NCBI GenBank assembly: GCA_964016885.1
Contig: OZ024766.1
Span: 16,306,001-16,370,000, forward strand
Direction: 5' to 3'
Source: Eledone cirrhosa
Lineage: Eukaryota
Length of the DNA: 64,000 nucleotides
Position 1 is the first letter of the stretch. The number at the start of each line of letters is the position of its first letter. Below the pieces are notes generated by a model. It was not told the origin of the DNA. It searched no databases and saw only the letters and a program-made list of their open reading frames with translations. Of this stretch, positions 1 to 40,262 are shown piece by piece. The position numbers were made by a program, and so were the translations under genes.

Positions 1-760
1 TCCCTTCTTCCAATGTCAGTTGTCATACAGGTGTCCATGTCTGTCTTATTTAACTGGCTACTCCAGTGACTGTTCCTTCTAGTCCCTTCTTCCAATGTCA
101 GTTGTCATATAGGTGTCCATGGCTGTCTTATTTAACTGGCTACTCCAGTGACTGCTCCTTCTAGTCCCTTCTTCCAATGTCAGTTCTCATACAGGAGTCC
201 ATGGCTGTCTTATTTAACTGGCCACTCCAGTGACTGCTCCTTCTAGTCCCTTCTTCCAATGTCAGTTGTCATACAGGTGTCCATGGCTGTCTTATTTAAC
301 TGGCTACTCCAGTGACTAATACTTCTAGTCCCTTCTTCCAATGTCAGTTGTCATACAGGAGTCCATGGCTGTCTTATTTAACTGGCTACTCCAGTGACTG
401 CTCCTTCTAGTCCCTTCTTCCAATCTCAGTTGTCATATAGAAGTTCATGGCTGTCTTATTTAACTGGCTACTCCTGTGACTGCTCCCTCTAGTCCCTTCT
501 TCCGATGTCAGTTGTCATACAGGTGTCCATGGCTGTCTTATTTAACTGGCCACTCCAGTGACTGCTCCTTCTAGTCTCTTCTTCCAATGTCAGTTGTCAT
601 ACAGGCGTCCATGGCTGTCTTATTTAACTGGCTACTGCAGTGACTGCTCCTTCTAGTCTCTTCTTCCAATGTCAGTTGTCATACAGGAGTCCATAGCTGT
701 CTTATTTAACTGGCTACTCCAGTGACTGCCCCTTCTTGTCTCTTCTTCCAATGTCGATTG
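1..760. repeat. 82-bp satellite array A (>=9 monomers, cut by window start)
   Basis: Monomer TCCCTTCTTCCAATGTCAGTTGTCATACAGGWGTCCATGGCTGTCTTATTTAACTGGCTACTCCAGTGACTGCTCCTTCTAG; TCCC at positions 1 and 83 gives the period. Confidence 0.97.
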
Positions 761-1165
761 CCATGCAGGAGTTGATGTTCTTTAGATGCTTCTCGGTATG
801 TGCTGCACTCTTCCACCAAATCACCTGAGATCCTCAATTGACGTTGGTCCTTGAACAATATGCAGAAGTGGCTGTAAATAAAAACTCTCTCTGTTGTTGG
901 GGTGGTCATTGTAAACATGCCCAATAGCATCACTTGCCTTGACTTCATCACCTTGCACTAAATGACCCTGCTTCCTTTGATTCCAAGTCTTACAATTGGT
1001 CCAGGTGTAGTATTTTGGGATGTCAGCATATAGGAGGGATCGAACAAATTCTTTAGTCTGGCAGTGTTTCAAAAAAGCAGTTAGAGTAGTGTCAGGTGGT
1101 GCTGGTGTCAACTGATGAGCAGTGGTTTCAGGGAAGTACACACTCTGTCCATTTTCTATATGTAT
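761..1165 (-). mobile_element. Decayed Helitron RepHel internal fragment (region between Rep and PIF1 helicase), upstream half
   Basis: Translation HIENGQSVYF...PPDTTLTAF...LLYADIPKYYTW...IGHVYNDHPNNRESFYLQPLLHIVQGPTSIEDLR, then frameshift to CSTYREA..LLHGNRHW; resembles recalled Helitron consensus HLENGQRVYF/TTLTAFF/GRVYTVHP/FYLRLLL..V.GPTSF.DLR/TYREAC. Confidence 0.88.
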
Positions 1166-1173
1166 AGAGATAA

Positions 1174-1455
1174 GGATGAAAAGCAAAGTTAATCCCTCAG
1201 AGGTTAGCTTTGCCTTTCATCCCTACGGGTTTGATAAAATAAAGTACCAGTAATGTACTGGGGTATTGCTGGCCTTGTGCCTAATGTAGAAACAATTATT
1301 ACGTGGTCGATAAAATAAAGTACCAGTAATTCACTGCCGTATTTACTGGCCTTGTGCCTAAAGTAGAAACAATTATTACGGGGTCGATAAAATAAAGTAC
1401 CAGTAATACACTAGGGTAATTGCTGGCCTTGTGCCAAAAGTAGAAACAATTATCA
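1174..1455 (+). mobile_element. 5'-truncated SINE with three tandem ~77-bp 3' tails and a fold-back head
   Basis: GAGGTTAGCTTTGCCTTTCATCC..GATAAAATAAAGTACCAG matches the full SINE at 2817; tail repeats start at ~1225, 1301 and 1378. Confidence 0.75.
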
Positions 1456-2191
1456 CATTTCTTTTTAATAAATCACATCACTATAGAATTAAATACGACT
1501 GGAAATGTGTGTGAAGGTACTAAATTATGTCAGGGACTTGTCACGTTTGACACCGTACGAGAGTTGAAACATTCGCTAAGACACCGAGTACCTGCTGTCT
1601 TCGTTATAACTTTAATTAATCTAATTATATCTTGTGTAACAATTATATATATATACACACACACAATTTTAATTCCCCGACATCAGTCTTACACTGTCAT
1701 ATCTATTCTTACTTTACAATTGTGTCTACTAAGAATTCCATTACAATCTAGTAAAACTACTATTTCACCAGAACATCTGCTATCAGTCATTTATAGACAA
1801 TATATATATTTTAGACCACATATCAACCTAATATATATATTTCCTATCAAATCTGTAGCTAAAGACATAAAGTCAGCCTCACTACTTCATTCTGACAAGA
1901 TATCAATTTATGACTAAAGATGAAGAAGATACACCAACGTTAATGTCGTGAAATAAAGCTGATAACATTGAAACTTCTAATTTGATAACAAAGAGATTAT
2001 TTCTTTGGTTGTTTAGTAACAACTAACAACACAATACATTGATTATATGTGAAGGAGGTAAGTTGACAAAGATTTACTTAATGTCTATATTAATGTGTGT
2101 AAATAATATAATTACTTGAACCTTACAACGATCTAGTAATTAACCAGATTCCACTGTTACATGTGATATAAAATATATTGTTATGACTGTC

Positions 2192-2500
2192 TTTATTATT
2201 TAAATTACCTCCGTCTATTTAATTATGTGGTTCACTACCTTACATTATAAAATATAGTTTATATTTAGCTGTACCTTGTTATTGCTTTAAGTAAATTAAA
2301 GATATATTTATTATTTATATTACCCCCGTCAATTTAATTATCTTGTTCACTACCATACATTATAAAATATAGTTTATATTTAGCTGTACCTTGTTATTGC
2401 TTTAAGTAAATTAAAGATATATTTATTATTTAAATTACCCCCGTCAATTTAATTATCTTGTTCACTACCTTACATTATAAAGTATATTTTATATTCAGTT
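2192..2500. repeat. 115-bp AT-rich minisatellite, ~2.7 copies
   Basis: TACC(T/C)CCGTC recurs at 2206, 2321 and 2436. Confidence 0.9.
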
Positions 2501-2756
2501 TTAGTCTAAATCTCTTACAATTTAATTAACTTCATCTACTTATGGTTGAACATTACTTTATTGTGGGTTTCATTTCATTATAATTATGTCTGATTAGCCA
2601 GCCAAGTAGGGGTTGAGTATCTGTATTTCAGGGAACTGCTTTGATGGTGAAGGGACATCTGTTGGTGTGGGATCTCGGTGGCTGTACATAATAAGGTTCT
2701 AATACTCTAAAGAGCTAGCTGAATAACCGTCTGATACATGTCTTGTATAGAGGATC

Positions 2757-38271: not shown

Positions 38272-38720
38272 CAAAGTCATATCTCATTGTCTCAAAATTG
38301 TAAATTAATTAGACACAAATACATTCATATGAGTGAGAAGCCATACCACTGTGGTATTGTGGAGAAATAATTCTCTTGTATTGCTACATTAACTACATAC
38401 AAACATAAATATATACTGGAGAAAAGCCATATTACTGTGATATCTGTGGAAATTGTTATCTATAAAAGCTAGCTTAACTAGACACAAACATATATATACA
38501 GGAGAGGAACTATATCACTGTGATATCTGTGGGAAATCATTCTCTGAAATAAGTCACTTCACTCAGCACTAACATTTACAGAAAAGGAACCATATCACTG
38601 TGATATCTGCAGTAAATCATTCTCTAAATGTTGTGACTTCACTAGACACTAACATATACAGGAGAGGAACTGTATCACTGTGATGTCTGTGGTAAATCAT
38701 TTTCTAAATGTTCTGGTACC
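38272..38720 (+). pseudogene. About 6 decayed zinc-finger units in the 3'UTR
   Basis: Frameshifted finger units. Confidence 0.9.
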
Positions 38721-39149
38721 AACATAAGGTTACTTAATGTAACACAAACACAATCAGACAAGATAAAAACCATGTCACTCACCCAAAATAGTGCCACCAA
38801 TGTTGTTAATGTCTTGAATAAAACTTGTTTGTTCTGAAATTATTCTCCTTTCATTTTATTTGTAGAAGTTGTAACCAAGACTTGTGCTGACAAATCTATA
38901 TGGTACAGAATTTACAAACACTGTATATATATATATGTGCCAAAACATCTATGATCTCGGTTTACAGCTGATGAAGGGTTTCTTCTCTCCTTTCATCCAT
39001 ATTACCATCTTAAACTTTGTTTACAGTAACCACACAGCTCCTTTCGTTTCTTATAATTTTATATATATATGACAAAGGAGGTGTGGTAAAGAACCAGATG
39101 GACCATATACGCACCAGAGTACTCGATACTTAGGGTAGTAGAGCGGGTA

Positions 39150-39272
39150 ATAGGAAAATGTTTAACCCCGACGGCAGAGCTTAATCCATTTCGACGGCTA
39201 TTTCTGGAAACAGTCCAGAAATAACCGTCAAAATGGCTTGAGCTCTGCCGTCGGGGTTAAACATTTTCCTAT
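39150..39272. repeat. Palindrome IR1 (module 4)
   Basis: Paralog of 6803-6925. Confidence 0.93.
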
Positions 39273-39610
39273 ATATATATATATATATATATATATATAT
39301 ATGTATGAGTGTATATGTCAGTGTGTAGAAGTTTCTGTCCATGAAAATGATTATCTGTATTTGTGTATATGTGTGTGTGTATATATGTATGTGTATGTTT
39401 ATATGTGTTCTTATATACATGTGTGCACATCTTGATATATTTTCAGTGTCTGTTCTAGTTCTCAGAGTACAAATCCTACTGAGGTAAATTTGCTTCGATA
39501 TTTTGAGGCCAATAAATGAAATACCAGTGAAATACTGGGGTAGTTAATTCCTCTTCTTTGTCATTGTCTGTTTGTCTACTCTTCTCTTTCTCTGTATTTA
39601 TATATATATA

Positions 39611-39806
39611 TCCAAAATTAAGATAAATTAAAATAAAATTAATGTAAATCAAATTATGGGAGTCATGCCAGAAAGACATGTGACATATCACCCATAAAAT
39701 AAGCTCCATGGAGCTTATTTTACGGGTGATATGGCGCATGTCTTTCTGGCATGCCACCCATAATTTGATATAGATTAATTTTATTTTAATTTATCTTAAT
39801 TTTGGA
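39611..39806. repeat. Palindrome IR2 (module 4)
   Basis: Perfect core AAAATAAGCTCCATGGAGCTTATTTT. Confidence 0.92.
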
Positions 39807-40262
39807 TATATATATATATAAATAGGGCCTCTTAATTGTAGAGCTAACTCTGTTGAAAGAACCTGACTGCTGTTTCTAGTTGTCAATAACCCAATTCACG
39901 CCACTGGGACGAAGCTGGTATGCTGTGTGTATATTTAGTAGATACAGCACGTGTTACTGGTCAGTCGCTGATTTGAACTTGATGCGTAAACACAGATGGT
40001 TGGACTTCTTCCTTGTTGAGAATCCAAGATCTGGCTACTGTCGTTTAGCAATCGATTAGTTGGTGAAATATATTTCTTTAATGGAATATATACAAGGAAG
40101 ATTAATCGTTTTCTAAGGTATCTATTTTTGAAGTTCTAGTTAAACTTTATTTAGTTACCTACCTAGCTATGTGTGCTTACACACATTTACAAATTATCCC
40201 CTGTGATTGTTTCATATGTTTATTTATATGTCAATCAATTTCTAGTTGATATATATATATAT

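Follow-up and report, generated by a model that had tools for sequence, protein, structure and literature searches.

The stretch analysed here, referred to as the window, comprises 64,000 nucleotides (nt) of the Eledone cirrhosa assembly GCA_964016885.1 (contig OZ024766.1, positions 16,306,001 to 16,370,000 of the forward strand) and holds a tandem cluster of zinc-finger (ZNF) genes of the C2H2 type, in which four modules of 7-9 kb each, in the same orientation, alternate with five arrays of an 82-bp satellite. Each module comprises one intact C2H2 open reading frame (ORF) downstream of a satellite array, an arrangement of four cassettes in one orientation, each behind satellite, that an earlier sequence-only reading had described and that repeat and ORF mapping confirms. 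As that reading had also stated, the four ORFs are intact; on the plus strand, they form ATG-to-stop frames of 537 amino acids (aa) with 18 fingers (4215-5828), 705 aa with 24 fingers and an internal duplication at an 11-finger period (13674-15791), 537 aa with 18 fingers, 17 of them canonical (28526-30139), and 425 aa with 14 fingers (36994-38271).

The satellite occupies about half of the window, in arrays of 5 to at least 290 copies. The first array (S0, 1-772) is cut at its left end by the window start and holds at least 9 copies (9.4 units, period 82); it is followed by S1 (8624-9933, 16.0 units, with an altered right junction), S2 (18782-25114, 77.2 units, with a 1628-bp higher-order repeat), S3 (32985-33384, 4.9 units, that is 5 copies) and S4 (40262-64000), which is cut by the window end, holds at least 290 copies (289.5 units) and contains near-identical blocks at the kilobase scale. 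Higher-order structure is apparent in the large arrays, at 22000-25100 (S2, 1628-bp period) and 41800-64000 (S4). The copy numbers given previously for the satellite (at least 9, 16, 77, 5 and at least 290), for the fingers (18/24/18/14) and for the tails of a short interspersed nuclear element (SINE)-like repeat (3/2/2/3) were all recovered.

When their repeats are set aside, the modules diverge by 0.9-4.4% by segment over all six pairs, with 33-62 private sites per module among the 4248 sites compared, and each of the four keeps an open ORF with a finger order of its own. Since two haplotypes cannot yield four versions, the pairwise differences of 1-4% and the private sites indicate that the modules are genuine paralogues, rather than two haplotypes. 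Consequently, it is extremely unlikely that the arrangement is partly an assembly artefact, with haplotypes or satellite blocks written in tandem, although S4 contains identical (100%) 820-nt windows that lie 3521, 4095, 4506 and 8601 nt apart, and the junction at 40261/40262 falls at a (TA)n tract. At this junction (40261-40262), the (TA)n tract of module 4 is joined to satellite interior, and a tail of ~715 bp, including the downstream Helitron flank described below, is absent. The sequence-only reading had missed this loss, as well as the Helitron origin and the selection on base-contacting residues described below. The opening 820 nt of S4 find their best match inside the array, at 46960-47777 (97.2%), so that the join would reflect either a natural deletion that reached into the array or the way in which the sequence was assembled. 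The A followed by TC at 40261/40262 was considered as a Helitron 5' end and rejected, since it is on the wrong strand and is expected by chance after a TA run.

The flanks of the arrays, on both sides, translate as a decayed protein on the minus strand, and several lines of evidence relate this protein to the RepHel transposase of Helitrons. A stop-free 97-aa ORF of the flank (33437-33730) had the Helraiser transposase as its sole match in the PDB (7LCC residues 817-894, E=0.026), and an exhaustive search returned 910 protein matches at E<=0.001; in a word-index search with the Helitron flank, none of 23 candidates matched. Among 12 long homologues scanned (of 150 listed), Helitron_like_N was found in 11 and PIF1 in 8, and in the homologues that have both domains the match falls between them. 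One of the 12 (P0126) presented domains of long terminal repeat (LTR) elements only, without a Helitron domain, and is probably a chimeric model.

By tblastn, the right flank of every module was matched by all 150 listed homologues. Furthermore, a seed-independent profile, for which only the protein sequence following the seed match was used (65 of the 150 proteins were long enough), matched the left (far) flank in modules 1-3, with E values of 2e-11 to 2e-7 at Z=1000. This downstream profile crosses the right edge of S0 at profile positions 19-61, and the left edge of S3 at positions 32-68, continuing at 72-188 in the left flank. The upstream (Rep-side) flank was delimited, on the minus strand, at 773-1171 in module 1 (tblastn of homologues, cross-junction profile match and translation), at 9934-10322 and 25115-25527 in modules 2 and 3 (tblastn and translation), and at 33385-33787 in module 4, which was the query region for the homologue searches. 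The downstream (helicase-side) flank, on the same strand, was placed at 8280-8623 and 18440-18781 in modules 1 and 2 (profile and translation; both starts are approximate) and at 32646-32984 in module 3 (tblastn and profile).

The distance between two anchors, one on either side of the array, is informative about the monomer itself. Of the 26 homologues in which both anchors could be located, 25 have them 77 aa apart; in the window, the spacing is 72 aa (S1) and 74 aa (S3) when one copy of the monomer is kept, and 45 and 47 aa with zero copies. Since one retained monomer restores the spacing, the monomer would be a native RepHel segment, and not a foreign insert. Moreover, the scores of natural satellite dimers were reached by 0, 17 and 18 of 1000 shuffled monomers, and the arrays are flanked by RepHel coding sequence contiguous with the monomer, not by non-coding subterminal inverted repeats. 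From the sequence evidence, then, we read the satellite as a segment of 82 nt from a decayed Helitron RepHel gene that was amplified where it stood. Three observations weigh against this origin: neither of two pure-satellite regions matched the downstream profile at E<=1; two of the three pure dimers score below 2 bits, the monomer alone being a weak match; and the spacing, which was measurable in two of the five arrays (S1 and S3) and not at S2, where the anchor motif of module 3 is mutated, falls 3-5 aa below that of the homologues.

The fossil is an internal RepHel fragment of ~0.8 kb, of ~250 codons with stops and frameshifts, and no intact autonomous RepHel was found in 1-41 kb. Its stops and frameshifts are largely common to the modules, so that Helitron decay likely preceded the duplications. 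The Rep-side piece (9972-10367 and 33437-33832, minus strand) retains an open frame of ~120-130 codons in three of the four modules, the copy in module 3 having a stop, which probably reflects merely limited decay. An initial guess that the flanks derived from a long interspersed nuclear element (LINE) was dropped once the minus-strand translation was read, and weak Pfam matches of flank pieces (E 0.13-0.23) were attributed to chance.

Helitrons are known to capture genes and to form concatemers, and the presence of RepHel sequence in every module, in head-to-tail units, invites the view that the cassette is a non-autonomous Helitron with a captured ZNF gene, laid head to tail by rolling-circle transposition. 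We consider this very unlikely. With profiles built on the Rep side (26 proteins) and on the helicase side (22 proteins), nothing else was matched in 1-41 kb, apart from one chance-level match (i-E 0.25), and no Helitron element ends were found, the 3'-end scan, for a hairpin before CTRR followed by T, covering module 1 and returning two weak matches, both in SINE-like tails; the ends of the cluster fall beyond the window. In addition, the fossil is an internal fragment whose lesions are largely common to the copies, and exchange along the modules, described below, accounts for the pattern without transposition.

In the ZNF proteins, 73 of the 74 fingers are canonical (C-x2-C-x12-H-x3-H, with a 28-aa period and TGEKP-type linkers), and Pfam zf-H2C2_2 was far above the cut-off in all four. 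The only non-canonical finger is finger 13 of gene 3 (29639-29722), in which Tyr replaces the first Cys. No KRAB, SCAN, BTB or other effector domain appeared among the best 25 Pfam matches listed per protein, an unseen upstream coding exon being possible, and the 36-aa leader matched no Pfam family at E<=1 and retrieved no homologue when used as query. The best 120 of 5393 matches of the full protein were mostly vertebrate, with 35-60% identity, and none of these was from a cephalopod; an Atlas search returned generic C2H2 clusters, none of the four proteins was present by exact-sequence lookup in the protein collection, and motif searches of published texts and supplements gave no match. The style of the fingers, the leader and the SINE-like element appear octopus-like. 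Upstream of the ORFs, a candidate splice donor GTAAGT (2058-2063, and at 11141, 26345 and 34682) and a candidate acceptor (3840-3841, and at 13174, 28147 and 36611), both on the plus strand, are conserved in all four modules.

The finger arrays behave like minisatellites. Within gene 2, finger 8 is identical to finger 19 and finger 12 to finger 23, and fingers 5-6 of gene 3 recur as fingers 9-10; arrays vary in length between conserved end fingers. Shuffling is also evident between genes: 32 of the 70 non-terminal fingers have their closest relative solely in another gene, and fingers are as alike between genes (84.9% identity) as they are within a gene (84.7%). The last coding finger (5748-5828, 15711-15791, 30059-30139 and 38191-38271) is position-specific, being 95-96% identical between genes and at most 84% identical to any other finger, and represents a stable edge of the shuffling zone. 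Past the stop, frameshifted fingers follow on the plus strand at 5829-6350 (6-7 fingers), 15792-16549 (9-10), 30140-30740 (7-8) and 38272-38710 (5-6); these tracts hold 6/9/7/5 core matches and ~6.6/9.5/7.5/5.5 units by length, in agreement with an earlier count of ~7/10/8/6 dead fingers. Live and dead finger counts rank almost alike across the modules, of which there are only four.

In C2H2 fingers, helix positions are numbered from the established structure, and positions -1, 2, 3 and 6 were taken as the base-contacting codons. When the 67 distinct non-terminal fingers were compared as 66 spanning-tree pairs, omega was 2.61 at these positions and 0.53 at the other 24 codons; 33 disjoint pairs gave 2.36 (p=2e-4) and 0.55, a contrast that is large even though the pairs are of related, recombining fingers and the p-values are therefore too optimistic. 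The scaffold values of 0.53-0.55 suggest purifying selection, and the excess at base contacts over the scaffold suggests functional genes with diversifying targets.

The ancestry of the modules was followed along 49 informative sites, of which 12, located in a palindromic element (7243-7432), were dropped because they likely represent one event. The remaining 37 sites split 14/12/11 among the three possible trees (13/10/10 without CpG-type sites), and those supporting a given tree lie in short runs, with adjacent sites agreeing in 16 of 32 cases (permutation p=0.02). In simulations without recombination and with strong rate variation, none of 2000 runs reached 20 conflicting sites, and the two minor trees together attained a maximum of 11. 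Such mixed trees exceed the simulated homoplasy and point to exchange all along the unit, since exchange restricted to the arrays would give one tree per module; indeed, the breakpoints are spread across the unique parts of the module. At the array edges, the left junction is identical in the three arrays that retain it, the older right-edge variant is kept in three of four right edges (S0, S2 and S3), and one Helitron fossil lies within the unit, which supports the proposal that satellite and gene travel together. At S1, the right edge (9925-9945) has been rewritten by a modern monomer, ~6 nt short.

Taken as a whole, the evidence makes it likely that the array grew by tandem amplification within a dead Helitron, next to an ancestral zinc-finger gene. 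Unequal crossing-over then likely multiplied the entire ~8-kb unit, in which the satellite would be a passenger and one of several exchange sites. Under this probable scenario, a Helitron would have inserted near the ancestral ZNF gene and, prior to the duplications, been reduced by decay to about 0.8 kb; one 82-nt segment would have duplicated and expanded via misaligned exchange; and the whole unit would then have multiplied by unequal crossing-over. The modules would continue to swap sequence along their entire length, with the inner tandem tracts gaining or losing copies upon out-of-register pairing, and selection would hold the ORFs open and favour new DNA-binding specificities, each paralogue likely reading different targets.

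Further points count on the other side of the balance. The mixed ancestry may be the product of gene conversion, which leaves gene number unchanged, and the founding duplication junction is outside the window, so that unequal crossing-over is deduced only from the head-to-tail layout. The exons implied by the donor and acceptor are candidates only, and the relatedness of the fingers behind the omega values belongs here as well.

A stronger role for the repeat, with the satellite as the main crossover substrate whose arrays mispair and add or remove whole genes, and with gene conversion responsible for the mixing within modules, is possible, but we regard it as doubtful. The proportion of satellite in the window and its range of copy numbers, the ending of the module-4 junction in satellite interior and the rewritten edge of S1 are all in line with it. 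Two or more rarer variants are common to 25 of the 70 full-length S2 units and 49 of the 269 S4 units, as array-to-array exchange would produce, but these common variants could be explained by descent alone. Human 19p12, where KRAB-ZNF genes were reportedly duplicated together with flanking beta-satellite blocks (Eichler et al. in 1998), offers a precedent. Crossovers inside the satellite would leave no trace in the module alignment. On the other hand, breakpoints are scattered in unique parts of the modules, finger arrays vary in length as well, and no satellite is needed for mispairing because the modules are ~97% alike over 8 kb. The suggestion of the sequence-only reading that the satellite is the unequal-crossover substrate is thus weakened as a sole cause, and it retains the one rearrangement that ends in satellite (40261/40262).

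The layout is of a known kind, in which tandem ZNF genes are accompanied by a satellite and their fingers are shuffled under selection; the traceable Helitron origin is the new part. The human 19p12 cluster resembles the present one in that ZNF genes and satellite were reportedly duplicated together; it differs in that the present proteins showed no KRAB and that the present satellite can be traced to a piece of transposase coding sequence within its own flanks. Closer to E. cirrhosa, Albertin et al. in 2015 reportedly found a tandem repeat of 70-90 bp to be enriched next to the C2H2 genes of octopus, and likened it to human beta-satellite. Coleoid cephalopods carry tandem clusters of multi-finger C2H2 genes (PMC9068888; PMC9795677), and the octopus and coleoid C2H2 expansion is matched here by a multi-finger tandem cluster in which no effector domain was detected. 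The mechanism of the cephalopod expansion has been termed elusive (PMC12513265), and breakpoint analysis is said to be still to come (PMC12988792).

Satellites derived from transposons are well known, and the Drosophila DINE-TR1 has been tied to a rolling-circle element (PMC6947457), as the oyster Cg_HINE is a Helitron-linked satellite (PMC7492417). The Helitron-linked satellites described in PMC7492417 and PMC13404089 are central repeats of non-autonomous elements. The HINE/DINE satellites of Helentrons share with the 82-mer the link to a rolling-circle element, whereas they are central repeats spread by the element, and here a piece of RepHel coding sequence would have been amplified in place, riding on gene duplication. 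Our literature search found no satellite born from RepHel coding sequence and no Helitron link to cephalopod ZNF clusters; it covered few subscription papers, and this repeat may already be present in supplements or repeat libraries beyond its reach. In passage searches, the word 'Helitron' was absent from PMC12513265, PMC9068888, PMC12988792, PMC9115989 and PMC9795677.

With regard to the fingers, shuffling is a familiar property of PRDM9-like arrays. Excess change at base-contacting residues is described for the FiNZ (FZNF) genes of zebrafish (PMC10547256), and the present genes are similar in this respect to FiNZ and KRAB arrays. Unlike PRDM9-like and FiNZ arrays, the E. cirrhosa genes present fingers common to four paralogues, a position-specific last finger and a frameshifted finger tail past the stop.

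By what route zinc-finger families expand within single lineages is still an open question, and one that has been put explicitly for cephalopods (PMC12513265; PMC12988792). At this locus, the order of events appears readable from the sequence, from Helitron insertion and decay to satellite birth, cassette duplication and finger shuffling under selection, and the locus would be a clear example of a satellite that originated in transposase coding sequence and has kept both flanks. As the parent sequence of the monomer is known, the spread of this monomer should be traceable genome-wide, and satellite-bearing ZNF genes should carry the same two RepHel flanks; the correlation of repeats with nearby ZNF genes thereby becomes a direct genome-wide test of whether the repeat drove the expansion or rode along. 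In a more ambitious version, which we consider unlikely, a single Helitron fossil would be the source of a satellite marking much of the octopus C2H2 expansion, the 82-mer being the short repeat long noted beside these genes and the recombination substrate that multiplied hundreds of them, and some fast-evolving fingers would bind the transposon-derived array near their own promoters, so that array length and gene dosage would feed back on each other.

The sequence-only reading had also placed the satellite within ~1.3 kb of the donor of a putative first exon, and the measured distance to the conserved candidate donor is indeed 1.21-1.30 kb (1286/1208/1231/1298 nt in modules 1-4). In this context, array length could tune the gene, with longer arrays spreading heterochromatin onto the nearby promoter and length being selected. 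Both the proximity of the array end to the candidate donor and a CpG-rich patch at 1454-1700 (observed/expected 1.21), about 0.7 kb from the array, agree with such an effect, as do the presence of H3K9me3 in cephalopods and the relatively methylated satellites of octopus, reported in PMC9476566. Nevertheless, CpG observed/expected in the arrays is 0.02-0.03, which leaves little target for 5-methylcytosine, and neutral misaligned exchange already predicts length variation, so that we judge length tuning quite improbable; a histone-based effect of the array on the gene is possible.

Several other repeats are contained in the modules. An element that we take to be a SINE lies on the plus strand near the upstream Helitron flank, with three 77-bp tail repeats in module 1 (1192-1451), two tails in modules 2 (10343-10526) and 3 (25548-25731), and three in module 4 (33808-34067). 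A 115-bp tandem repeat is present in 2.6 copies at 2192-2495, ~5 copies, some of them truncated, at 11275-11868, 2.9 copies at 26482-26819 and 3.9 copies at 34816-35267, matching earlier counts of ~2.7/5/3/4. Within the candidate intron of module 1, a second SINE-like copy is accompanied by decayed pieces resembling reverse transcriptase, in both orientations (2890-3700); one of five such pieces, on the plus strand only, matched Pfam RVT_1 at E=0.021, falling short of the cut-off. In 1-42 kb, five Rfam matches for structured RNA at E<=0.1 were all far under their gathering scores, and no tRNA genes were found in the unit. A 157-aa ORF at 1444-1917 was rejected as a gene: only in module 1 is it that long, and Pfam gave no real match for it.

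The palindrome mentioned above is a TA-flanked, MITE-like element that occurs in all four modules (7243-7432, 17433-17625, 31627-31814 and 39613-39808). Its arms are more self-complementary in modules 2 and 4 (178/192) than in modules 1 and 3 (156-158/180), which suggests arm-to-arm conversion and rules out the inversion that we had considered at 7243-7432. A second TA-flanked inverted-repeat element, at 6800-6925, is likewise present in the four modules. In module 2 only, a 117-bp tandem duplication (99% match) occupies 13196-13429, just past the candidate acceptor. Finally, a short tail with (TCA)n repeats at 8150-8280, presumably of a retro-element, adjoins the downstream Helitron flank.

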